From Patescibacteria group bacterium (GTDB lineage: Bacteria > Patescibacteriota > Patescibacteriia > UBA11705 > DATKZF01): 64,000 bases of DNA. This document shows, in pieces, positions 2,179-47,544 of this stretch. The notes under the pieces were generated by a model, which was not told the DNA's origin, did not search any database, and saw nothing but the letters and a program-made list of their open reading frames with translations. A program made the translations under genes and the position numbers. Location of the stretch: positions 15,550-79,549 of the forward strand of contig JBMORT010000002.1 of the NCBI GenBank assembly GCA_049319825.1, given 5' to 3'. The first letter of the stretch is position 1. Each line of letters starts with the position of its first letter.

Positions 2179-3895
2179 TATGCTTGAGCTTTCCCTAAGC
2201 ACTCTCAATGTCATCGCCTGGTCAAAAATTATATTTTTTTTATTTTTGGCCGTTTTGATATTTTTAGTTTTCAAAAAAAACAAGCCGTGGCTTTATCTTT
2301 TGGCAATCACCGCGGCCGTCGCCGGATTCTACCTGATATTCAGCCGGCCGCTGGAAAAAATGTTTTGGGGCAATAACGGTGACGAGGTTTTCATATTTTC
2401 ATTTCTGACCAAGGTGATGGCCGGAGATTATTTCAAAGACTTTTACTATTCCGCCCTGCCGCCGTTTTATCCGCCGCTGTATTTTTGGATCATTGGCACC
2501 ATTTCAAAATTTTTCACCACCGGCGGCATTGCGGCCGCTAAAATCGGCAGCTTTTTCACTTTATCAATCTGGTTTGTCGGACCATACCTTTTCCAAAAGC
2601 TGTTTTGGAAAATTTCAAAAGAAAAAGAAGAAAAATCAATTGTTCAATCAAAATGGTTCTGGCTGATTTGCCCGATAATTTTTTTCATCAGCCTGGACTT
2701 TGATGCCGTTATTTTAAAGCCTTATGAAACTCTACCGGCACTTTTCGGCGTTTTGCTGATCGGCATGATTTCAATCAGCTTTGACTGGGAAAAATGGACC
2801 TGGAAAAATTATTTATTTTTGGGGATCAGTGGCGGACTGCTTTTCCTGACTTATTATTTCTGGTGGTTTATTTTAATCCCATCAATTTTTACATTGGCCT
2901 TAATTTCCAAACAGAAATCGAAAAACTTGCTTCGAATACTTTTGCTTGGCACTATTATTTTCGCTGTCGCGTCGCCCTATTTAATCCCCCTCGTTAAGTC
3001 TTATCTCGCGCATGGCATGGAAAACTGGCAGGCCGCGTTTTTCGTGCCGCAGGATTTCTCGACTTTTGCGCCCTGGACGCCGCTGAATCTGAAAACTGTC
3101 ATTGTAATTGCCGGGCTGATTGGTTTGATTTGGTTTCGAAGAGACAACTTCATTAAGGCCGGCCTGGTCACCTTCAGCTTCGCCTTTGTTTATCAATTGA
3201 TCAATATTATCGCTTATTTGGCCGGCGCCAAACCAGCTCAATCAGCAAAGCCGTTTTTATTCTTAGGCACTGCCTGCCTGGCGATCGGCGCAGCATATTT
3301 GCTGATCCACTTATTTCGAAAATTTGCCTCCAAGCTTGAACTCAAATTTCAAAAATCAGTCGTTTTGATATTAATTTTAATTTTCTTGCCCCTGATGCCT
3401 TTTGCCAAATTCATCGATGATCCGGTGGTACAGGCTCAGATTGAAAAAGATTTGTCTGAGCCGAGCATCAGGCCAATCGCTGATTTTATTAAAAACAATA
3501 TTCCCGATTATTCCCAGAGAATCTGGCTATCGAGCGGCGCGCCCGAAATCAATGCCTATATTCCAATGACTTATTATATCGCGCACAATCCGCATTTCAG
3601 CCATCAAGCCTCAAATTATTCGAAGCGGTTTGAGCAGGTCGAAAAAATGACTCGGACCGGCTCAGCTGAAGAATTTATCCGGATCATCGAAAGCCAGCCG
3701 GAAAAAATAGACAGCCTGCTGCTTTATTTTGATCGGTCCACGGATACTTATCCGTTATTTTTCTGGCAAGATAATTATCCCAATGGCGGCCAAGAACTCA
3801 GGCTCGATTTGCCGAAAAATTTAATTGATGAAAAATATTGGGAAAAAAGGTATAATGATGGTGAATGGTATATTTATATTAGAAATTGGAAATAA
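2138..3895 (+). CDS. large polytopic membrane protein with C-terminal soluble domain (putative glycosyltransferase-like)
   Basis: 585-aa ORF with many TM helices and a Pro/Tyr-rich loop YYSALPPFYPPLYFW. Its start overlaps the upstream gene. An alternative ATG at 2180 (MLELS...) lies just after the upstream stop. Confidence 0.5.
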   Translation: MTNLNLKGFILINDMLELSLSTLNVIAWSKIIFFLFLAVLIFLVFKKNKPWLYLLAITAAVAGFYLIFSRPLEKMFWGNNGDEVFIFSFLTKVMAGDYFKDFYYSALPPFYPPLYFWIIGTISKFFTTGGIAAAKIGSFFTLSIWFVGPYLFQKLFWKISKEKEEKSIVQSKWFWLICPIIFFISLDFDAVILKPYETLPALFGVLLIGMISISFDWEKWTWKNYLFLGISGGLLFLTYYFWWFILIPSIFTLALISKQKSKNLLRILLLGTIIFAVASPYLIPLVKSYLAHGMENWQAAFFVPQDFSTFAPWTPLNLKTVIVIAGLIGLIWFRRDNFIKAGLVTFSFAFVYQLINIIAYLAGAKPAQSAKPFLFLGTACLAIGAAYLLIHLFRKFASKLELKFQKSVVLILILIFLPLMPFAKFIDDPVVQAQIEKDLSEPSIRPIADFIKNNIPDYSQRIWLSSGAPEINAYIPMTYYIAHNPHFSHQASNYSKRFEQVEKMTRTGSAEEFIRIIESQPEKIDSLLLYFDRSTDTYPLFFWQDNYPNGGQELRLDLPKNLIDEKYWEKRYNDGEWYIYIRNWK

Positions 3896-3913
3896 GAAAT
3901 AGGAAATTGGGAA

Positions 3914-5344
3914 TTGGAAAGTAGAAAGTGGAAATTTAATATGGGAGATGAAAAACTTTTTGATCTGTTTCAGCGAGAACAAGAATATTTAAAAGAGCAG
4001 GAACAAAAAAATCCTGAACTTTTTATTCGAACCGAGTCAGTCGAGTCAGCCGAGACACTGGCAAAAGTCGGCATATCTTTCCCCTTCTCCCAGCTGCCGA
4101 TTGGTTATTTAAAGTATCATCCTTTCGATTTTATAGTCGAGGAAATTCAAACCGACGGCCGAATCAGCTCAGTGGGCATTGCCGAAGAAAACAGTTCAGG
4201 ATTGTCCGCTGAAGATCCGACCATCTATGCTGATTTGGTAAAAGTCGGCATTTCGACCATAGATGCCGTGGATGAGCTGGCCAAAATGCTCAGCATCGAT
4301 TCGAAAAATATCGGCACGGCCGGGATAAAAGACCAAAACGCGCTGACCAGCCAGCGCATCAGCATTCGCTCAGCCAGGCTGGACAAGGTCATTAATCTAA
4401 AGCCGAAAAACTTTTTGCTCCAAAATTTAGCCACCGGCAAAGGGGCGATACAGCTGGGCAGCCTGACCGGCAATCGATTCACCATATTTGTCCGCACGGA
4501 AAAACAAATACCTCAAAGCGCTGTCGAAGACCAGCTCAGCCGGGCTCGGAGTGCTGGATTTTGGAACTTTTACTGGCTGCAGCGGTTCGGCAACCGCCTG
4601 CTGTCTCATTACTGGGGCTTACTTTTATTCCGGGGGGATTATCAAGGAGCGGTCAGATCTTATTTTTGCCAGCCGGGCAATCAGGATAATCCTTTTTACC
4701 GGCAGCTAAGGCAGCAGGCAGCCGAGCGATTCGGCGACTGGCCGGCGCTGCGCGAGATGTTTGAAAAGCTTCCTTACAGTCTTCGCTATGAACTGACCAT
4801 GCTCGATCACCTGATCAAGCGGCCGGATGATTACACCGGCGCTCTAAACACCATCTCAGACCAGATCCGGCTGTGGGTTTACGCCTATGCCAGCTATCTA
4901 TTCAACGGCTTACTCTCACATTATGCCAATTCCGGCGAAAAATGTCCGAAAAATTTACCACTGGTTTTAAGCCTGGATCGAGCCGATCAGGCACCCTATC
5001 AGGCGTTTCTGGAAGCGGACGGCGTGCCCGCTAATTTTGGAAAAAACTTAAGGCCTTTTCCTTATATTCGGCTCTCTCACCGGGTCGTCAATTCCCAGTT
5101 TGAGCCGGAAATCCTGGGCGTCAAATCATTGCCCGAGGGCGTATTAATTGCTTTTAATCTGGACAAAGGTTCGTATGCCACCACTTTTCTCGCCCATCTT
5201 TTTACACTGACCGGCGGCCTGCCGGTGCCGCATTGGCTGAAACCTCAAAAATATGATTTTAAAAAACTGCTTGGACCGGGCAGCATTAAAAATACCTTTG
5301 AAATGTTTAAAGACTATATTGTGGAAAAAGAAAAGGCAGTATAA
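3914..5344 (+). CDS. truD: tRNA pseudouridine synthase TruD/Pus7-family-like
   Basis: GTAGIKDQNALTSQRISI matches the GxKD catalytic motif. FWNFYWLQRFGN matches the NYFGxQRFG motif of TruD. A start at 3944 (MGDEKLF) is also possible. Confidence 0.55.
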   Translation: MESRKWKFNMGDEKLFDLFQREQEYLKEQEQKNPELFIRTESVESAETLAKVGISFPFSQLPIGYLKYHPFDFIVEEIQTDGRISSVGIAEENSSGLSAEDPTIYADLVKVGISTIDAVDELAKMLSIDSKNIGTAGIKDQNALTSQRISIRSARLDKVINLKPKNFLLQNLATGKGAIQLGSLTGNRFTIFVRTEKQIPQSAVEDQLSRARSAGFWNFYWLQRFGNRLLSHYWGLLLFRGDYQGAVRSYFCQPGNQDNPFYRQLRQQAAERFGDWPALREMFEKLPYSLRYELTMLDHLIKRPDDYTGALNTISDQIRLWVYAYASYLFNGLLSHYANSGEKCPKNLPLVLSLDRADQAPYQAFLEADGVPANFGKNLRPFPYIRLSHRVVNSQFEPEILGVKSLPEGVLIAFNLDKGSYATTFLAHLFTLTGGLPVPHWLKPQKYDFKKLLGPGSIKNTFEMFKDYIVEKEKAV

Positions 5345-28448: not shown

Positions 28449-28519
28449 GGAGAGGCGGCCGAGTGGCTTTCGGCGCGGCTCTCGAAAAGCCGTAGGGCCG
28501 AAAGGTCCTCGTGAGTTCG
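28449..28519 (+). pseudogene. degenerate 5' fragment of a tRNA-Ser(CGA)-like gene
   Basis: GGAGAGGCGGCCGAGTGGCTTTCGGCGCGGCTCTCGAAAAGCCGTAGGGCCGAAAGGTCCTC reproduces the acceptor 5' half, D-arm, CGA anticodon arm and long variable arm. The T-arm is disrupted and there is no 3' acceptor strand. Confidence 0.6.
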
Positions 28520-28591
28520 CACCGAACCGGACTTCGCGCGGCGAAGACGTTTCGGGGCGCCCTGCACCGTGCTCTATAAATCTTTTATTGC

Positions 28592-28681
28592 GGAGGGATG
28601 GCCGAGTGGTTGAAGGCGCAGCTCTCGAAAAGCTGTAGGGGCGCAAGCTCCTCGTGGGTTCGAATCCCACTTCCTCCGCCA
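28592..28681 (+). tRNA. tRNA-Ser (anticodon CGA), CCA encoded
   Basis: GGAGGGATGGCCGAGTGG D-arm, anticodon loop CTCGAAA, long variable arm, GGTTCGAATCC T-loop, terminal CCA. Confidence 0.85.
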
Positions 28682-28816
28682 ATAGAGCACTGGTGCAGGG
28701 CGCCTGCCCGGCGGCGGATTGGAAAAAGTCGAATCATCCCAAAATACGACAGTGGTATAAAACGAGGCGGATTTAAAAAACCTAGCCGTTTTAACTTAAA
28801 AAGATGAAATGAAGAC

Positions 28817-29302: not shown

Positions 29303-32300
29303 ATGATAAAAATAAAAATCTTCATATCAATCCTGGCAATATTTCTATTGTCGGCCTTAGGTTTTTCCAACAGCATTCCCGTCGCCTCGGCAATATCCGG
29401 CACCAATGTCCAGCCAGGCAATCTGGTGCAGTCGAATGTCACCTCGGTAACAGTGACTTTCACCAGCGCCGTCACCTTACCGGCTGATGGAAAAGTGAAA
29501 GTCGTTTTCCCTGCCGGCTTTAATGTCAGCGGCGCCACTACCGGCCGTTGCACCAGTATGAATGGCGGTTTCTCCACCTCTATATCCGCTCAAACCGTTA
29601 CGATTACGCGTGACAACACCGGCTCTGCCAGACTGGCCGGGGCCCAATCTTGTACTATTGATAATATCGCCAACCCTTCACTGGCCGGCTCCACCGGAAC
29701 GTACGCCATCGGTCTTTATCAAAATAACGATACTTTGCTCGAGCAAGACTTGGCCGTATCTGCGGATACGATAATCGCTCCGGGCGCTTTGGCTGCCACT
29801 AATGTCGAACCTGAAAATCTGATTGAACTGACTCGATCACGATACGCCGTTTCTTTCACTACCGCGAACCCTGTCACCGCCGACGGCCAGATTAGCGTGA
29901 CTTTCCCTGCGGGATTCAATGTTTCAGCGGCGAACGGAGGTACTTGCGCTTCAATGAACGGCGGTTTTTCCACTTCGGTCAACGGCCAGACCGTCACTTT
30001 GATCCGAGACGGCTTGGGCACGGTTCAAACACCGGCGGCAGAAACATGCGTCATCGATGGCATTGCCGCCCCGGCCGCCGGATTGTCCGGCACATACACT
30101 ATCAGAACGAAAGATCGATCCGGCAACAGTACCGATAGCGATCCGGCGGTGTCGAGCGACATGTATATTGCCGCGCCGGCCTTGGTCGTCACCAATGTCC
30201 AGCCGGCCTCCCTTGTCGCCGGCGCCACGTCGACAGTCACGATTTCCTTCACGACAGTAGTTTCCACTCCGATCAGCGCCAAGGTGCGAGTGACATTTCC
30301 GGCAGGTTTCGACCTCTCTGCCGCGGGTACGGCGAGCTGCTCTTCCATGCCCGGCACAGAATCTTCGGCCATTGCCGGACAAGTGTTGACGATTACCAGG
30401 GCGGCCACCGCCACCGAACCAGCCGCCGCGGAAACTTGCATCATACCCACCGTTAAAAACCCTCCTGTTTCCGGATCAACCGGGACATATTCCATTGAAA
30501 TAATAGACGATCAAGCTTCGCCGGCTGTCGTTTCCTCGGATACGGCCGTTTCCGCCGACACGATCACTCCCGGCACACTGACCGCCACCAATGTCCAGCC
30601 TGAAAATCTGGTGGTCGGCATCACCAGCGAACAAACTGTCACTTTTAACACGACCAATCCGATTCCGGCCAATGGGAAAATTTCAGTGGATTTTCCGGCA
30701 GGATTTAATGTCAGCGCCGCCAATGCTGGCACGTGCGCGGTCATGGACGGAACTTTTTCTACTTCTGTTGCCGGTCAAACCGTGACCATCAGCAGAAACG
30801 GCTCACTCGCGGTATCTTCGACCAGCGCCATTACCTGCATCATCAAAGACATTACGGCTCCGGCAGTTCCCGGAGCGGGCGGCGTCTATGCGATCAGAAC
30901 CGAAGACTCTCTGGGAAACACCATTGATTCGGCCGCGCCGACCAGCGATACTTTTATTGCCAGTCCGTCATTGGGTGGCACAAACGTACAACCAACGAGT
31001 CTCGTTGCTTCCATCACCAGTGACAATGCGATTTCATTCAACACCTCTCAATATATTCCGGCAGAGGGCAAAATAAAAATAACCTTTGGGGCCGGGTTTA
31101 ATGTTTCCGGCGCTTATGGCGGTGAATGCAGCGGCTTCGATGGCACGCTCATCACTTCTGTCGCGGGGCAAACAGTTATTCTTTCTCGCGGAGGGACTTC
31201 AACTACCGTCGTCTCCGGTGCCAAAACATGTCGCCTTTATGGAATAAAAAATCAGTCGATAACTGGATCCACCGGCACTTATTCGATTTTTATCACTGAT
31301 AAAACGGATGCGACCGTTGCCTCAAATTCTTCAGTCGCTGCCGATACGATCATCAATTCCGGAACTTTGACCGCTGCCGATGTCCAGCCGGGATCTCTTG
31401 TCGCTGGGCATGTGGGAACTAATTTGATAACTTTTTCCGCGGTTGGTGGCATTCCGACCGGCGGGAAAATAAAAATCACTTTCCCGTCCGGCTTCGATGT
31501 CAGCGCCGCCGCTGACAGCTCCTGCGTCGGGCTGACGGGAACCGTCTCGACCAGCGTGTCGGGGCAAACCGTAACGCTCAGCCGAGACGCGTCGAGTGCC
31601 GGACAAGCCAGCGGCACCGTGTCTTGCTCTATCGACAATATTAAAAATCCCACCGTATCCGGATCCACCGGAACATATCTGATCACAACCGCCGATCCGA
31701 CTGACACGACTATTTCCACCGCCTCACCGACCGCGGACACCATCACCGCTGGTGCGCTTAGCTCGGCGGATGTCCAGCCGGATACGACGCTGATATCAGC
31801 CGCCAATACCGTTTCGGTCAATTTTAACGGCACCAATCCGTTGCCCGGAGACGGTAAAATCGTCATCGTCTTTCCCGCCGGGTATGATCTGACGGGAGTC
31901 GGCACCGCCGATATGTCTTGCACCGGCTTAGCCGGCACTCTCAGCGCATCGACAGCCGGCAATACCCTCACCGCGGCACGATCCGGCGGTTCGGCGACAA
32001 GCGGCGGCGATGCTTTTTCCTGTGCCATAGCCAATATCATCAATCCGACAACGGCCGGATCTGCCGGCACATATACGCTGCGTACCACCAATTCTGTCGA
32101 TGCGATAATCGATGAAAATAGTTCTGTTGCCGCCGATACTTTCGGCGCGGCCGGAACGCTGACCAATACCAATGTCGAGCCGGAAAGCACAATCATTAAA
32201 CGAACGGGAACCGCGACAATTTCCTTTACCTCTGCTTTGGGTTTGCCGCGAGACGGTAAAATAAGAATTACTTTTCCGGCCGGATTCCTGATCACCGGCG

Positions 32301-33460
32301 CCAATGGCGCCGGTTGTGGAAACATGGACGGATCATTTGCCACATCGGTCTCCGGACAAAGCGTAACCATCACCAGAAGCGGCGGCACCGGTGAACCGGC
32401 CGGGACCAGCCATTGCCAAATAGCAGGAGTCAGAAATCCTTCAATCATCGGATCCGGGGGCACGTATTCCATTGAGTTGTTCACCGCCAGTGATCAACCC
32501 ATCGAATCCGATTTGGCGGTGGCTGCTGATAATTTTGTGCCGGCCAGCTCGGGTGGCGGCGGCGGCGGTGGCGGTAATGCAAAAAATAATGGCGATCAAA
32601 TCGTTTTGGAAAAAATTCTCACGGAAAGGCAAGAAAGGGTTTCGAGACTGCCGGCGCCGGTTCACAGTTTGGTCAAATTACCAAGCGATAATGATCCAAC
32701 GACTCAATACGATACCACCGTTTACTATTTGGGCGCGGACGGTTATCGCCACGCGTTTCCGAATGATCGCGTCTTTTTCAGCTGGTTTTGCGATTTTTCA
32801 TCGGTAATAACCATCAGCGCGCAGCAACTGGCTTCGATTCCGCTAGCCGAAAATATCACCTATCGGCCCGGTTATAAAATGATAAAATTCACTTCGATTC
32901 CTAAAGTCTATGCCGTTGATTTAAACGGTCAGCTTCGCTGGTTAACCACGGAAGCCCTGGCCTCAACTCTTTACGGAGACGATTGGACCAAACAAGTCGA
33001 TGATGTTTCAGACGCATTCTTTTATAATTATTATTTTGGAAACGATATTGCCTCGATTGACGATTTCAATCCCGGCGCGATATCGCAATCTTTTAAATAT
33101 CCCAGCGATAATTTAAATCTGCCAGGATATTCCTCGGAGACACTCGGGCATCCTTTCCTGTGTGAACCGTCAAAGACGGCAAAAAAAAATCCGTATATCT
33201 TTCAGGAAGATTGGCGTTTTTTGAAAAATATATCAACCGGATCGACAGCTGATCCTGATGTCAAGCATCTCCAAGACTTCTTAAGAGCTCAAGGCAAAGA
33301 TATTTATCCAGAAGGTTTGGTCACCGGTTATTTCGGACCGGCCACGTCAGCGGCGGTAAAAAAATTTCAATCAGCCAATAAAATTAAGCAGACCGGGATT
33401 TGCGACGATTTGACCAAAAAAATCATCAATGATATTTTAGACAGCCAGCTTGGACAATAA
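29303..33460 (+). CDS. giant cell-surface protein: 8 tandem ~128-aa Ig-like repeats, poly-Gly linker, C-terminal domain with peptidoglycan-binding (PG_binding_1-like) module
   Basis: Signal peptide. Eight repeats each begin TNVQP/TNVEP and contain VTFxT..P..GKIxVxFPAGFNVS...TC.I..I.NP...GSTGTY. A GGGGGGGG linker follows. The C-terminal motif DVKHLQDFLRAQGKDIYPEGLVTGYFGPATSAAVKKFQ is typical of PG-binding domains. The region is GC-enriched, so the long minus-strand ORF 31279..32484 is a shadow. Confidence 0.8.
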   Translation: MIKIKIFISILAIFLLSALGFSNSIPVASAISGTNVQPGNLVQSNVTSVTVTFTSAVTLPADGKVKVVFPAGFNVSGATTGRCTSMNGGFSTSISAQTVTITRDNTGSARLAGAQSCTIDNIANPSLAGSTGTYAIGLYQNNDTLLEQDLAVSADTIIAPGALAATNVEPENLIELTRSRYAVSFTTANPVTADGQISVTFPAGFNVSAANGGTCASMNGGFSTSVNGQTVTLIRDGLGTVQTPAAETCVIDGIAAPAAGLSGTYTIRTKDRSGNSTDSDPAVSSDMYIAAPALVVTNVQPASLVAGATSTVTISFTTVVSTPISAKVRVTFPAGFDLSAAGTASCSSMPGTESSAIAGQVLTITRAATATEPAAAETCIIPTVKNPPVSGSTGTYSIEIIDDQASPAVVSSDTAVSADTITPGTLTATNVQPENLVVGITSEQTVTFNTTNPIPANGKISVDFPAGFNVSAANAGTCAVMDGTFSTSVAGQTVTISRNGSLAVSSTSAITCIIKDITAPAVPGAGGVYAIRTEDSLGNTIDSAAPTSDTFIASPSLGGTNVQPTSLVASITSDNAISFNTSQYIPAEGKIKITFGAGFNVSGAYGGECSGFDGTLITSVAGQTVILSRGGTSTTVVSGAKTCRLYGIKNQSITGSTGTYSIFITDKTDATVASNSSVAADTIINSGTLTAADVQPGSLVAGHVGTNLITFSAVGGIPTGGKIKITFPSGFDVSAAADSSCVGLTGTVSTSVSGQTVTLSRDASSAGQASGTVSCSIDNIKNPTVSGSTGTYLITTADPTDTTISTASPTADTITAGALSSADVQPDTTLISAANTVSVNFNGTNPLPGDGKIVIVFPAGYDLTGVGTADMSCTGLAGTLSASTAGNTLTAARSGGSATSGGDAFSCAIANIINPTTAGSAGTYTLRTTNSVDAIIDENSSVAADTFGAAGTLTNTNVEPESTIIKRTGTATISFTSALGLPRDGKIRITFPAGFLITGANGAGCGNMDGSFATSVSGQSVTITRSGGTGEPAGTSHCQIAGVRNPSIIGSGGTYSIELFTASDQPIESDLAVAADNFVPASSGGGGGGGGNAKNNGDQIVLEKILTERQERVSRLPAPVHSLVKLPSDNDPTTQYDTTVYYLGADGYRHAFPNDRVFFSWFCDFSSVITISAQQLASIPLAENITYRPGYKMIKFTSIPKVYAVDLNGQLRWLTTEALASTLYGDDWTKQVDDVSDAFFYNYYFGNDIASIDDFNPGAISQSFKYPSDNLNLPGYSSETLGHPFLCEPSKTAKKNPYIFQEDWRFLKNISTGSTADPDVKHLQDFLRAQGKDIYPEGLVTGYFGPATSAAVKKFQSANKIKQTGICDDLTKKIINDILDSQLGQ

Positions 33461-35177: not shown

Positions 35178-36716
35178 TTATTTATCAATCCACTGCTTAT
35201 CATACCATTTTTTATTTTTGAAATCAAATTCGCTGATTTTCCATTTTTGACTAATAATCATCCCCACCACCATCCACCAAAAAACCGAAAGGTCATTCTT
35301 AAAATACGGCACGTCAACCAAACCATGAATCAAAATAACCAATATTACCATTATAATAATAAAATAATCCGTTCCACTGCCTGCTGCCTGCTGCCTTTTG
35401 CCTTCATAATAACCGGTTTTAGCTTGTAGCTTGTAGCTTGTGTCTTGTAACTCTGTACCACTACTGCCTACTGCCTTCTGCCTATTGCCTTTTCCGTCTT
35501 TCATTTTCCAATAATCAATAACAACCCTACCAATAATAATCCACCATACCACCAATCCAAGCAAACCGAGCTCCGACCAAAAATTCAAAAATATATTATG
35601 CGGGTAAAGATAAATTTCAATGTAAGACTTGGTGTGAAAAGGCTCCACTCTTTGCTGATACCCGGCCAGGCCCGCGCCTTCGATCGGCCGCTCAGTGAGC
35701 ATGTCCCAGGTTTCCGACCACATCTCTCGCCTGATTTGTCCTGAAGTGTCGCGAAGCAAAAGTTTATCAGTTAAAACATTGCCGCTGGCCGGCATGGCAA
35801 GGATTAAAATGATTCCAATGGCAATGGCAGCCACTGCAAACCAGCGAATTTTTTTATTTTTCAAAAAAATTATGGCAGCGACAACAGCCATGGCCACTAT
35901 CGCGCCCTCAGTTTTCGCCCAGAATATTGCCAAGCTTGATAAAATGATTACCACTGCGTAAAAAATTCGCAGCAGCCATAAATCAAGAGGTTTTGGCGGA
36001 ACTCCGGTTCCGCCACTATTTTCGGACCACTTTAAAACCAGCTCGCCCAAATACCAAATCACCATCGGCGCCAAGAAAAGTCCTATCGCATTGGGATAGC
36101 CGTAAACCGAGGTGACGCGCCTGGTTTCCTCAGCTCGCCAAAACTCATTGGGAATCCAGCTGCCGGTAAACTTTTGGTAAATGGCTACCAAAGAAATCAA
36201 AACGGCGCTGGCGCCAAAGGCGTAAAACAATTTTTTAAAATCTTTTCGCTCTTTAAAAGTATTAAGCAGGACAATCAGCAAAAGTATCGGCTCAATAAAA
36301 TACGCTTTCCAAATTCCCAAGGCTGCAATTCTATCAGGTGACACAATGACGCCAATAGTCGCAGCAACTAAAAACAACAAAATTAGCCACTGATATTTTC
36401 CCAAAGGTTTCGACCACCCCCCCGGCCCCCCTCCTTCAAGGAGGGGGGTGGTGTGCGCTGGCGCGCGGCCAGCCTCATCGCCTCGCTGGCGCTCGGCTCT
36501 TCGGCCTTTTTTATATGAAGCAAGATATTTAATCAGCCAAACAATAAAAACAACCAAAATCATTACTTCAAGCACAGTCATTGGCACAAAGCCGATTTTA
36601 AACCTCAGAAGATAACTGGGCAGGCCGAAGGCGATTAAAATAATGGCCCAGTCGAGTTTTTTCCAGGACAGTATCGCGAATAGAATTGTGAAAATAATTA
36701 TTGCGATGCTAACCAT
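35178..36716 (-). CDS. O-antigen ligase/polymerase-like (Wzy_C) membrane protein with internal low-complexity insertions
   Basis: Multiple TM helices and GYPHNIFLNFWSELGLLGL (Wzy_C-type motif). The ORF reads through a GC-rich palindrome (36425..36455) and simple-sequence repeats (35380..35470) in frame. Confidence 0.65.
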   Translation of the reverse strand: MVSIAIIIFTILFAILSWKKLDWAIILIAFGLPSYLLRFKIGFVPMTVLEVMILVVFIVWLIKYLASYKKGRRAERQRGDEAGRAPAHTTPLLEGGGPGGWSKPLGKYQWLILLFLVAATIGVIVSPDRIAALGIWKAYFIEPILLLIVLLNTFKERKDFKKLFYAFGASAVLISLVAIYQKFTGSWIPNEFWRAEETRRVTSVYGYPNAIGLFLAPMVIWYLGELVLKWSENSGGTGVPPKPLDLWLLRIFYAVVIILSSLAIFWAKTEGAIVAMAVVAAIIFLKNKKIRWFAVAAIAIGIILILAMPASGNVLTDKLLLRDTSGQIRREMWSETWDMLTERPIEGAGLAGYQQRVEPFHTKSYIEIYLYPHNIFLNFWSELGLLGLVVWWIIIGRVVIDYWKMKDGKGNRQKAVGSSGTELQDTSYKLQAKTGYYEGKRQQAAGSGTDYFIIIMVILVILIHGLVDVPYFKNDLSVFWWMVVGMIISQKWKISEFDFKNKKWYDKQWIDK

Positions 36717-36739
36717 ATAATATTTGCGTTGTTTCTAAT

Positions 36740-36960
36740 CTTCAAATCGGCTCAGGCCGAGGCCGAGCCGCGCGAGGCCCCCGTTCGGTCATTTCGACCC
36801 TTCGGCTACGCTCAGGGCAGGCTGAGGCCGAGCTGTGCGAGCGGAATGGAGAAATCCCTTCCGGATTTCCAAAAGCGATTTCTCCACGCGGGCATTCGTT
36901 CCTCTCATGCCCTTGGTCGAAATGACCGGTTGGGTTGACGGGCATCCTTTCTGCCCGCGT
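36740..36960. repeat. GC-rich intergenic element with nested inverted repeats
   Basis: GGTCATTTCGACC at 36789 pairs with GGTCGAAATGACC at 36916. An internal hairpin GGAGAAATC...GATTTCTCC lies between them. GC content is far above the flanking genes. Confidence 0.6.
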
Positions 36961-45956: not shown

Positions 45957-46110
45957 ATTGAGTCATGGATCATGGAGCATAGAACACGTAGCACATAGCA
46001 TGGAGCACATAGCAGAGATACGAGACACGAAATACGAATTCGTTTCTCGTTTTTCGTTTATCGTCTTTCGTTTTTCGCTTCTCGCCTCTCGCTTTTCTCC
46101 TCTCAACAAA
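45957..46110. repeat. heptamer-repeat hairpin element, copy A: (GAGAYAC)n arm then (TTTTTCG)n arm
   Basis: catggatcatggagcatagaacacgtagcacatagcatggagca, then gagatacgagacacgaaatacgaa, then ttcgtttctcgtttttcgtttatcgtctttcgtttttcgcttctcgcctctcg. Related copies lie at 49700..49800 and 50110..50345. Confidence 0.75.
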
Positions 46111-46174: not shown

Positions 46175-47500
46175 CTATGCAGCCTTGGCCAGCTTCTTCT
46201 CCTCGGCCGTCAGAGCGTCGAAGAGGTATTCGGCGAATTTGGTCGCCGTCCGCCACAGAGCCATCTTGTGGATATGGCCGTCTCCGTAGCGCTGCTTGCC
46301 GTTAACCTTGATCGGCTCCGGATGGGCGGCCCGGAGCTTCACCTTGTACTCGCGGAGCTTTTGGCCCCAGACCGAGTCGGGCCGCTTGACGCACTGATCC
46401 ATGAACAGGTACAGCGCCTGTCGGCCGTCCGGATGCCAGTTGGCCACGAGGCCGCCACGACGCCGCGGGAACTGCTTTTCCGGCGGCACGTCAGTGAATT
46501 TTCCTCCAGCCAAGACATGCACCCCAAGGAACGCCTTCAGTTTTGCCTCGCTGGCAAATCTCCGAATGTCCTTGATGGCCACGATCAGCCGGGCGGCGAT
46601 CAGCGGCCCCATGCCTTCGACCGGCTCAAAGACGCGCTGGAAGATGTCGAGCGACTCGACCAGCCTCTTGAGCTCGGATTCTCTGGCCGATTCTTCTTTC
46701 GTGAGGGCCAGATAGACCGCGTCGTTGGCCTTCTCCTGATCGTAGAGGAGCTCGATCTCCCCTTCCGGGTACTTGCCATCGATGCTGCAAAAGATCCGGC
46801 CGATGAACAGCTGCCTGAGTCGCTGCTCGCACCCGATACGCGCCTTCATGGCGTCGATTCGGGCGCGGTAGGCCTCGACCAGCTCGATCAGCCGGCGGTC
46901 GCGCGGCGTCACTTCATAGAAGTCGGACGTATCCTCCCTGGTCAGCTCGGCCAAAGAGAGATCATCATCGTCCTTTCCGCGCTTGAAGTAATCCTCGCGC
47001 CAGCCCTTGAACTTGGCGGCGGGAATTCTCATCACGCGGCCGCCGATCTCGTCGGCGCGGCGGGACAGGGCGTACGCCAGCCGATCGCCGGATCCGCCGA
47101 GGATCATGGCGACCGTGTCGCCTTCGCGAAGGCCGTCGTAGTCGGTGGGGACCTCGAGGACGAACACGCCCTGCTTGGTCTCCTTGACCTGATGGTTTTC
47201 GGAAAGCGACGCGAGATCCGTGCCCTTTCGAACCTTTTTCCAGACCTTATGCCGGCTCATGAAGCCGGACAAATTCTCATCCTTTCCGGCCAGCCGCCAG
47301 CTGGTCGGGAATTTGCCCAGCACCCAGTCGAGCTCGGCCGTGTCGTCCGGCAGCTCGTAGCGAACGGGCTTTTTTCCGTCGAGGACGCAGACCTGAGTGG
47401 GTCTGGCCTCATCATCAGCTGTCCTTTTGACGCGATGACGAATACCGATGAATCTTTCCCGGCTGATTCTCATCATCCCCCTCCTCGTCCTTTCGGACAT
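46175..47500 (-). CDS. IS110-family-like recombinase/transposase (Transposase_20-like C-terminal domain)
   Basis: 441-aa ORF with balanced composition. C-terminal VEGMGPLIAARLIVAIKDIRRFASEAKLKAFLGV...RRRGG matches the IS110 Transposase_20 motif (iPGiGpitAa.llaeigd..rF.s...laay.Gl.P). KRGKDDDDLSLAEL resembles the KTDxxDA block. The N-terminal catalytic residues could not be assigned confidently. The overlapping plus-strand ORF 46145..47512 is an antisense artefact of high GC. Confidence 0.6.
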   Translation of the reverse strand: MSERTRRGMMRISRERFIGIRHRVKRTADDEARPTQVCVLDGKKPVRYELPDDTAELDWVLGKFPTSWRLAGKDENLSGFMSRHKVWKKVRKGTDLASLSENHQVKETKQGVFVLEVPTDYDGLREGDTVAMILGGSGDRLAYALSRRADEIGGRVMRIPAAKFKGWREDYFKRGKDDDDLSLAELTREDTSDFYEVTPRDRRLIELVEAYRARIDAMKARIGCEQRLRQLFIGRIFCSIDGKYPEGEIELLYDQEKANDAVYLALTKEESARESELKRLVESLDIFQRVFEPVEGMGPLIAARLIVAIKDIRRFASEAKLKAFLGVHVLAGGKFTDVPPEKQFPRRRGGLVANWHPDGRQALYLFMDQCVKRPDSVWGQKLREYKVKLRAAHPEPIKVNGKQRYGDGHIHKMALWRTATKFAEYLFDALTAEEKKLAKAA

Positions 47501-47544
47501 TTTTTGGGATAGAAGGAATTTCCTTCCCTTTAATGCTCAAATTA

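Follow-up and report, generated by a model that had tools for sequence, protein, structure and literature searches.

Why does the gene of a conserved membrane enzyme carry GC-rich palindromes and simple repeats inside its reading frame, and do these repeats switch the gene or does the gene merely tolerate them? The question arises in a 64,000-nt stretch of DNA from a Patescibacteria group bacterium (assembly GCA_049319825.1, contig JBMORT010000002.1, positions 15,550 to 79,549), hereafter the window, where an O-antigen-ligase-like gene of the Wzy_C family holds such segments. An earlier note on this DNA proposed that they could mediate phase or length variation of a surface-polysaccharide enzyme, or may be an insertion like a miniature inverted-repeat transposable element (MITE), tolerated in a loop. 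The explanation that we favour, with some reservation, is that small repeats are tolerated in the permissive loops of a conserved membrane enzyme and are passengers, not a rapid ON/OFF switch.

Three in-frame inserts in a Wzy_C-family gene

The gene encodes a protein of 512 amino acids (aa) that matches the Pfam family Wzy_C (PF04932) at residues 256-391, with E = 2e-21 and 76.8 bits (cut-off 31.7). It is 100% identical to [quoted passage not shown] from a 384,691-nt contig of a metagenome-assembled genome (MAG). The protein has 2,970 homologues and, among the matches listed, all carry PF04932. We take the gene, which is from an uncultured organism, to encode a functional Wzy_C-family membrane enzyme, with a predicted activity as glycan ligase or polymerase on a substrate linked to undecaprenol. 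To our knowledge, Patescibacteria have no lipopolysaccharide.

The nearest homologues (60-71% identity) are 400-428 aa long, against 512 aa in the window, and in the scans of genomes and metagenomes no relative exceeded 71% identity. The extra length consists of three in-frame inserts (A, B and C) and a C-terminal tail. The inserts were delimited in protein and codon alignments using orthologue DNA from two related contigs (L001 and L002), and five orthologues of the clade (L001, L002, L086, L087 and L088) were compared with the window. The features of the gene are as follows.

35178-36716, minus strand: intact open reading frame (ORF) of a Wzy_C-family (O-antigen ligase/polymerase-like) membrane protein, 512 aa (ORF list, Pfam, hydropathy)
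36417-36497, minus strand: insert A, 81 nt or 27 codons, encoding AERQRGDEAGRAPAHTTPLLEGGGPGG, in the loop after transmembrane segment 3 (codon alignment with L001 and L002)
36453-36497, minus strand: module A1 of insert A, 45 nt, GC-rich, GCCGAGCGCCAGCGAGGCGATGAGGCTGGCCGCGCGCCAGCGCAC (match to L001)
36409-36455, minus strand: module A2, a member of the dispersed hairpin family CCCCTCCTT-N3-AAGGAGGGG-N2-GGGGGTGGT (covariance model R1)
35982-36017, minus strand: insert B, 36 nt or 12 codons, encoding SGGTGVPPKPLD, in the loop after transmembrane segment 7 (codon alignment)
35403-35504, minus strand: insert C, 102 nt or 34 codons, degenerate heptamer blocks in the loop after transmembrane segment 11 (codon alignment, Tandem Repeats Finder)
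35376-35402, minus strand: resident heptamer array of loop C (AAGGCAA AAGGCAG CAGGCAG CAGGCAG), adjoining insert C (comparison of loop C DNA, Tandem Repeats Finder)
35181-35237, minus strand: lineage-specific C-terminal extension, 19 aa, ISEFDFKNKKWYDKQWIDK, rich in K and D, predicted to be cytoplasmic (protein and codon alignments, hydropathy, charge)

The inserts, at 81, 36 and 102 nt, are all multiples of three in length and contain no stop codon, and the gene retains all conserved motifs of its family. The earlier note had proposed to check whether the insert is lineage-specific; in the protein and codon alignments the inserts are, and they are missing in the closest orthologues. Insert B, the C-terminal extension and the 45-nt GC-rich module before the palindrome had been overlooked in that note.

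At the site of insert A the orthologue L002 has 6 nt only. The GC content of the insert reaches 0.77, in a gene of about 0.44. It is laid out as the GC-rich module A1 followed by the hairpin element A2. Module A1 is common only to the window and L001 (95.6% identity to L001:5160-5204) and is missing in L002, L086, L087 and L088. Nowhere else in the gene are 45-nt windows as conserved between the window and L001 as in this module and its 5' flank, where they reach 97.8% (mean of all, 77%). The full palindrome string, ccccccggcccccctccttcaaggaggggggtggtg, lies at 36418-36453, a few bases away from the 36425-36455 first given, and its minus-strand translation, ...TTPLLEGGGPGGWSKP..., is as originally described. 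The hairpin had been called near-perfect; its core, CCCCCCTCCTT-C-AAGGAGGGGGG at 36426-36448, is in fact perfect, with a 10-bp stem and a 3-nt loop or 11 bp and a 1-nt loop. Folded as DNA, the hairpin region 36420-36455 has z = -3.2 and the whole of insert A z = -3.3. An example peptide across the insert junction, from the predicted translation, is ...APAHTTPLLEGGGPGGWSK....

Insert B contains a perfect hairpin with a 9-bp stem (TGGCGGAAC-CGGA-GTTCCGCCA, 35994-36015). Its DNA fold has z = -4.76, with none of 200 shuffles equally stable, and it is missing in all five clade orthologues. Insert C is of the other kind. Its coding strand reads (AGGCAnn)x4-5 and then (ACAAGnn)x4-5, and it folds into no stable structure (z = +1.6). 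Tandem Repeats Finder confirmed the simple repeats that had been reported at 35380-35470 and placed them at 35377-35490, as CTGCCTG x2.9 (35377-35396, 100% matches), TAGCTTG x4.3 (35420-35449) and CTACTGC x4.3 (35461-35490). The simple repeats of the loop C region encode KDGKGNRQKAVGSSGTELQDTSYKLQAKTGYYEGKRQQAAGSG. A direct repeat of 29 nt (35376-35404 and 35463-35491) is 90% identical; a plain 87-nt tandem duplication was rejected as the origin of insert C, since the copies match over the first 29 nt only. Elsewhere in the window the insert C heptamer motif AAGGCAGCAGGCAGC recurs as an exact 15-mer at 4708-4722, inside the ORF 3914-5344, where it encodes ...RQLRQQAAERF...; this may be chance (E ~0.01) or a second small in-gene array.

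The Wzy_C family is characterised by 10-14 transmembrane helices and a large extracytoplasmic conserved loop. According to hydropathy, the window protein shows both, with about 13 hydrophobic segments and a conserved 65-aa loop at residues 312-376. In the AlphaFold2 (AF2) model (predicted template-modelling score 0.77) it is a helical bundle whose per-residue confidence (pLDDT) drops under 50 at the sites of A (residues 86-102), B (235-238) and C (410-446). The inserts therefore fall in low-confidence loops between helices in both the model and the hydropathy profile, in line with the loop location that had been proposed. Inserts A, B and C and the C-terminal tail are predicted on the cytoplasmic side because of the alternation of the segments, the short loops rich in K and R, and the large loop 312-376. 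A Foldseek search of the AF2 model against PDB gave nothing significant (best E = 0.44), and phmmer against the PDB sequences found no solved homologue, so the fold is not confirmed against WaaL and the topology is drawn from hydropathy and the positive-inside rule only.

GC-rich segments in an AT-rich gene from a MAG, with no close relative carrying the same inserts in two public collections, might also be mis-assembled or chimeric sequence, or the mark of a decaying pseudogene. However, the Logan assembly of run SRR32167788, made separately, is 100% identical over 5,539 nt spanning the gene, and mis-assembly is very unlikely because an independent assembly reproduces these 5.5 kb without any difference. 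The length and the stop-free reading of the inserts and the intact motifs also speak against decay, A1 is corroborated by a different genome (L001), and the same phenomenon is present in more than 100 independent assemblies. An artefact or a decaying gene is already largely refuted, and we regard it as extremely improbable.

The same loops carry repeats across Patescibacteria

Orthologues were collected from 80 loci of GTDB species genomes and 80 loci of metagenomes, which gave 137 distinct ORF sequences from 114 genome groups across Patescibacteria. At the 80 GTDB loci, 27 out of 30 in-gene period-7 arrays are located at query residues 62-110, 226-255 or 399-453, i.e. at the sites of inserts A, B and C. 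A lag test was performed on 138 orthologues. Strong period-7 periodicity was obtained in 11, 7 and 13 cases for loops A, B and C, against 0-1 case per loop for each of six other periods (5, 6, 8-11). The four control loops together gave a single case, at period 10, and none at period 7. The neighbouring Wzy_C paralogue was dropped as a control because it is present in only four loci.

Altogether, 76 heptamer arrays were found in the gene among the 137 orthologues. Their density in the gene is 0.418 per kb, compared with 0.022 per kb in the other long ORFs of the same loci and 0.386 per kb outside ORFs. Hairpins behave similarly. The orthologue ORFs contain 37 perfect GC-rich hairpins with a stem of at least 8 bp, most of them in loops A-C and in alignment columns of low occupancy, at a density of 0.193 per kb in the gene, 0.057 in other ORFs and 0.194 outside ORFs. 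For a given loop, 7-11 of the 138 orthologues bear a hairpin; the closest relatives of the window gene have none.

The lengths of loops A, B and C vary between 0-84, 0-47 and 0-63 aa, with all three loops of the window gene among the longer ones. Length variation, one of the two roles that the earlier note had offered, is thus real on the evolutionary scale; on the population scale it was seen only as the presence or absence of a hairpin and as one 9-nt indel, described below.

Both kinds of repeat are also over-represented in the window as a whole. It contains 19 period-7 arrays (mean 1.3 and maximum 6 in 30 local shuffles) and eight period-14 arrays (0.33 in shuffles), and all of the heptamer arrays outside this gene are intergenic. 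Of perfect GC-rich hairpins with a stem of at least 8 bp, the 64 kb contain 5-6 (shuffles, about 0.4), two of which lie inside this gene.

The hairpins belong to dispersed families

The hairpin element of insert A belongs to a family of elements of about 35 nt, including a 3' G-run, with the form given above and a variant CTCCCCCTT-N3-AAGGGGGAG. A covariance model (R1), built from 13 copies of the element, obtained 32 matches at E < 0.1 in 81 loci, both genic and flanking, and module A2 matches it with 29.3 bits (E = 6e-07). Copies related to the window element are present in about 12 other genomes, and the orthologues that host them are only 39-41% identical to the window protein. Many of the R1 matches are adjacent inverted doublets (L028, L071, L023, L029, L059). 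Another palindrome, TTCCGCCAGAGGCGGATCCGCCTCTGGCGGAA (32 nt), is shared by L017 (loop A) and L033 (loop B), whose proteins are 33% identical, and its 28-nt core is also found in the flank of L014. In L037 the stem ATTCCCGC...GCGGGAAT is present in all three loops (3175, 3593, 4092), each time with a different tetraloop, which suggests repeated insertion or intragenic copying of one element.

One insertion could be caught between near-identical sequences. The metagenome contigs Ga0066637_10051975 and Ga0210049_1010545 (L090 and L091) are 98.7% identical, and the sole difference in the gene is a GC-rich hairpin insert of 42 nt in loop B, GCTGTGCCCCGCATCTCCCGACGAAGTCGGGGCGGTGCTGGG (L090:722-763 versus L091:1315), adjoining a (TTTTTCAG)x3 array. 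In the 90% protein cluster of these two, the matching 14-aa insert is present in three members and missing in two. Because of this presence and absence among near-identical sequences, the insertion must be recent in at least one case. L017 resembles L090 in that its hairpin is directly beside an array. No obvious target-site duplication was seen at the borders of the L090/L091 insertion. The hairpins are probably mobile, as small dispersed elements.

The hairpin thus has several of the traits implied by a MITE-like insertion tolerated in a loop, as it is lineage-specific, sited in a loop and part of a dispersed family, while other traits of a MITE are missing. The elements measure 20-45 nt, below the 50-500 bp of MITEs, and they showed no terminal inverted repeats accompanied by target-site duplication. 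Instead of many copies per genome, there is a single R1 match within the 64-kb window. The palindrome 21-mer, searched with up to three mismatches on both strands of the window, has one site only (0 expected from 100 shuffles), no further copy of A1 or insert B was found there, and a high-copy repeat in the window genome was rejected for the hairpins because A, B and C are without other copies in the 64 kb except for the one 15-nt match. With a size far below that of MITEs, no terminal inverted repeats or target-site duplication, and a single copy in the window, they are better described as mini-hairpins resembling repetitive extragenic palindromes (REP) or small dispersed repeats (SDR). Rfam, at gathering thresholds, matched tRNAs only in the whole window.

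The commonest hairpin family holds the core Shine-Dalgarno (SD) motif AAGGAGG paired with CCTCCTT, and the stems stay perfect although the sequences differ between copies. This could point to a gene-specific role of the repeats in the mRNA or the DNA, where a stable hairpin resembling SD and anti-SD (CCUCCUU...AAGGAGG) pauses translation behind two transmembrane helices and so helps co-translational insertion into the membrane, or where the repeats are sites of protein binding or recombination and the peptides are incidental. Such a role would agree with an enrichment that is specific to the gene and at non-coding density, with the position of every insert directly after a transmembrane segment, and with the conservation of A1 at the DNA level above the rest of the gene. 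However, most orthologues are without a hairpin in a given loop, and therefore it cannot be required; none occurs in the closest relatives. The families are also heterogeneous and intergenic as well as genic, insert C is unstructured, and fresh palindromes have perfect stems whatever their function. We consider this role improbable. Two simpler functions were rejected from reading the sequence. There is no T-run 3' of the hairpins, as in an intragenic terminator, and no in-frame start codon after the SD-like arm, as at an internal translation start.

The heptamer arrays appear to turn over in place

The resident array of loop C is the positional homologue of orthologue arrays that have other units: across six clade members, loop C has arrays of similar length at the same position, but their units differ. 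The units in five of them are:

Window: AGGCAGC
L087: AGGCAAA
L001: AAAGTCA
L086: ATTTCGA
L002: GCGAGAA

Some of the units differ by 1-2 bases after rotation. The pattern indicates turnover in place and would fit mutation followed by homogenisation via slippage. Arrays of the AGGCAGC type are not confined to loop C in the clade, because the 19-mer GGCAAAAGGCAGCAGGCAG of the window loop C array is 100% identical at L002:6241-6259, in the C-terminal tail of the orthologue P0003.

Across the loci, 152 arrays fall into 98 unit classes, and sharing is mostly among AT-rich units. Limited heptamer families shared across genomes are therefore unsupported, and an origin in place is favoured over the dispersal of ready-made arrays. 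The median in-gene array of the orthologues has about four copies and 87.5% matches. The lengths of the in-gene arrays peak at 29-33 nt, i.e. about 1+3 units, where three units are 21 nt or seven codons, whereas for arrays elsewhere the peak is at about three units. This difference is the expected product of selection that preserves the frame.

Phase variation

The arrays could also form a contingency locus, where slippage of heptamers leads to ON/OFF switching, or to stepwise tuning of the loops, of a surface-glycan enzyme, as in neuO, and where three arrays raise the rate. With a unit of 7 nt, every slip by one unit shifts the frame, and genes of this class are classic targets of phase variation. 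Further, the arrays are 19 times denser than in other ORFs and period 7 alone is enriched. The quantisation at about 1+3 units implies out-of-frame intermediates or bursts of several units, and the units are homogenised within lineages.

The comparison of copy number and frame was made on the orthologues. Of these, 131 out of 137 are single ORFs of full length, and contig ends truncate the remaining six. When pairs of 94-99.9% identity were compared, some of them carriers of arrays (L024/L115), one hairpin insert was the only indel in the gene, and the identical P0003 protein is encoded on 13 contigs. Within 90% clusters, internal length variants occur in loops A and B only; they are the 14-aa hairpin insert and a 3-aa indel (a 9-nt duplication), with no steps of heptamers. 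One further ORF, in L074 (Candidatus Uhrbacteria MAG, 3001-4220), has a frameshift between residues 63 and 75, in the loop A region. It was dropped as an OFF allele because the frameshift is away from any repeat; either an error of sequencing or a true pseudogene may lie behind it.

Phase variation by these arrays, as the earlier note had suggested, is hence not supported, given short and degenerate arrays, full-length orthologues and unchanged near-identical pairs. The switch of the capsule O-acetyltransferase gene neuO of E. coli K1 is an array (AAGACTC)n of 3-53 perfect 5' copies, it is OFF in 65.6% of the genomes and it slips in culture (PMC13001214). In the window, the arrays have 2.9-4.3 copies with 86-100% matches, not a long near-perfect array of a unit that is not a multiple of three, and among closely related orthologues neither copy-number polymorphism nor an out-of-frame allele was seen. 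The inserts are located in mid-gene and 3' cytoplasmic (predicted) loops, not at the 5' end. What the two genes have in common is a 7-nt coding repeat in a surface-polysaccharide gene, a product that is full-length only in frame, and the equivalence of three units and 7 aa; unlike neuO, the copies are three to four, degenerate and internal or 3', and no OFF allele at an array occurs among the 137 orthologues. We judge a contingency locus to be quite improbable, although a slow switch on the evolutionary scale is conceivable.

Comparison with known repeat systems

In cyanobacteria, short tandemly repeated repetitive sequences (STRR) are 7-nt arrays that occur genome-wide, mostly in non-coding DNA, and belong to few unit families. 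Vioque in 1997 reportedly placed STRRs inside the cyanobacterial RNase P RNA gene, and Elhai et al. in 2008 are said to have described SDRs of 21-27 nt in cyanobacteria. The repeats of the window resemble these in having 7-nt arrays that are mainly non-coding, a tolerant site inside a gene, and mini-hairpins beside arrays. Period 7 is over-represented mainly in non-coding DNA (19 versus 1.3 in the window; 0.386 versus 0.022 per kb at the loci). In the window itself, units are reused as CATGGAG / GAGAYAC / TTCGTTT composites at three loci, while across genomes the units are mostly unique. Unlike STRRs, the arrays studied here are in another phylum, have idiosyncratic units (98/152), are short (about 3-4 units) and sit at a coding site where the frame is constrained.

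Yeast mitochondria contain GC clusters, from which the byp elements of Magnusiomyces are derived; both are short GC-rich mobile palindromes that differ in presence and absence between strains. They share with our hairpins the GC-rich palindrome in AT-rich DNA and the ability to land in coding regions. Byps are organellar, break the frame and are bypassed by the ribosome, whereas every insert here is in frame and stop-free, and therefore ordinary translation is indicated.

Rickettsia palindromic elements (RPEs) are small palindromic repeats in frame within protein-coding genes (PMC10969869). As with RPEs, palindromic DNA is present in the ORFs of a reduced genome with the frame kept, it adds a peptide at permissive sites, and it is lineage-specific and both genic and intergenic. 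RPEs, of about 100-150 bp, have a conserved peptide and are spread over unrelated genes of many kinds; the elements studied here measure 20-45 nt and occur in Patescibacteria, mostly in three loops of one family and accompanied by heptamers. Nor is the peptide conserved, as the reading frames differ (TPLLEGGGPGGW in the window versus LPSFQRRGWGW in L050).

REP and REPIN sequences are mobilised by REP-associated tyrosine transposases (RAYT; PMC3116915), and palindromes tagged with GTAG/CGTC have been described (PMC3733652). Palindromes of 20-40 nt, families and adjacent inverted doublets are found here as well. Unlike REPs, which are extragenic and of high copy number, the window element is without a GTAG/CGTC tag, occurs once in 64 kb and is intragenic. 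Hairpins that start with GTAG are present in L060 and L104.

Other repeats in the window

The intergenic DNA between the two Wzy_C paralogues contains, at 36729-36950, an element of about 220 nt that is GC-rich (0.6-0.72) and has no Rfam match. It includes two inverted repeats, a perfect one of 14 nt (CGGTCATTTCGACC / GGTCGAAATGACCG) whose arms are separated by 115 nt and an inner one of 19 nt, besides a direct repeat of 24 nt, CAGGCYGAGGCCGAGCYGYGCGAG, at a spacing of 65. Its motif CTTCGGCTACGCTCAGGGCAGGC is 100% identical upstream of the orthologous gene in L016 (2852-2874). The element looks like another dispersed repeat family.

Further features of the window are:

45964-46104, 49700-49860 and 50130-50307: composite intergenic heptamer repeats, (CATGGAG/CACATAG)n, (GAGAYAC)n and (TTCGTTT/TCGCTTC)n
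46175-47500, minus strand: IS110-family (DEDD) transposase in a GC-rich block (up to 0.8) (Pfam Transposase_20, DEDD_Tnp_IS110)
29303-33460, plus strand: ORF of 1,385 aa with about ten tandem domains of about 110 aa (...VTFPAGF[ND]VS...GTY...), followed by the Gly run SSGGGGGGGN

The (TTCGTTT/TCGCTTC)n blocks reach 13.7 copies, and around a central GAATTC the GAGAYAC blocks are roughly the reverse complement of the TTCGTTT blocks. The composite repeats adjoin tRNA genes and follow dnaN. The IS110 transposase is directly downstream of dnaN, with heptamer arrays on both sides (45964-46104 and 47716-47852), which suggests that the IS110 element was inserted into the repeat. The non-coding sequence at 47500-47900, upstream of the transposase, could encode a guide (bridge) RNA.

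An intact tRNA-Ser(CGA) occupies 28592-28681, between the arms of a 23-nt inverted repeat (GGGGCGCCCTGCACCGTGCTCTAT, 28555-28578, and ATAGAGCACTGGTGCAGGGCGCC, 28683-28705). The 5' two-thirds of a decayed copy lie 143 nt upstream of it, at about 28449-28520. The arrangement suggests that a tRNA cassette was replaced or inserted here, or that an integration site left a scar. A tRNA-Leu(UAA) is present twice, at 49571-49657 and 50388-50471, about 800 nt apart, with a tRNA-Gly(GCC) between. Perfect GC-rich hairpins lie on both sides of the first copy (CAGCCTTCGCTGGCGCGAAGGCTG and TTCGGCCGGCAAGCCGGCCGAA, 49549-49572 and 49681-49702). The 1,385-aa ORF, for which the gene table lists a C-terminal PG_binding_1 domain, has a perfect GC hairpin at 32294-32314 and presumably encodes a cell-surface protein.

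Origin and meaning of the inserts

If the repeats are tolerated passengers, as we favour, the three least constrained loops of the enzyme would gather both kinds of repeat that fill the non-coding DNA of Patescibacteria. The hairpins would arrive as discrete insertions of 20-45 nt, in insert A of the type CCCCTCCTT-N3-AAGGAGGGG-N2-G5TGGT, and slipped-strand mispairing would create the heptamer arrays where they stand and renew them there. Selection would purge the versions that shift the frame or bear a stop, leaving survivors of 3n length and arrays of about 1+3 units, which would be translated as disordered hydrophilic linker peptides. Neutral in this way for the enzyme, the passengers would drive the evolutionary variation in loop length. 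They would thereby be comparable to RPEs and to the STRRs of cyanobacteria, in another phylum and with elements of much smaller size.

Several observations weigh against this explanation. The excess of arrays of about 19-fold over other long ORFs is larger than passive tolerance alone would lead us to expect and hints at gene specificity. The exclusive period of 7 nt, where coding repeats usually have 3, 6 or 9 nt, is left unexplained, as is the SD/anti-SD-like sequence of the commonest hairpin family. Neutral drift fails to explain the 96% match of A1 to L001, against 77% for the genes, in a clade whose other members are without A1. No target-site duplication, transposase or RAYT is tied to the hairpins, although RAYT was not systematically searched for. 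Finally, with one R1-type copy in 64 kb, the element is not shown to be a repeat within the window genome.

The first four of these observations leave room for a role that is specific to the gene or lies at the nucleic-acid level. Patescibacteria may possess a heptamer-specific repeat generator and families of mini-hairpins, in parallel to the STRRs and SDRs of cyanobacteria, for which the Wzy_C loops are preferred sites of landing or expansion, so that the enzyme is tuned, or switched over evolutionary time, by steps of three units and by the gain and loss of hairpins. We see this as possible but doubtful.

In-frame repeat insertions and heptanucleotide arrays are known kinds of feature. The searchable literature contains no link of heptanucleotide repeats or in-frame palindromic insertions to Patescibacteria or the Candidate Phyla Radiation, and we found in it no description of the recurrence in three fixed loops, of a strict 7-nt period, or of dispersed mini-hairpin families.

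For annotation, the inserts mean that extra low-complexity or GC-rich segments in membrane proteins of Patescibacteria can be genuine in-frame insertions and need not be errors or new domains. The 7-nt periodicity, the non-coding-like density and the families shared between proteins of 33-41% identity point to an uncharacterised mutational or mobile-DNA process, and such "junk" is unexpected in a phylum of tiny, streamlined genomes. About 140 orthologues with independent inserts at three fixed sites are a natural system for following the birth, movement and filtering of repeats in coding DNA. If the enrichment in this gene is truly specific, it would also bear on the variation of envelope glycan enzymes in episymbiotic bacteria.

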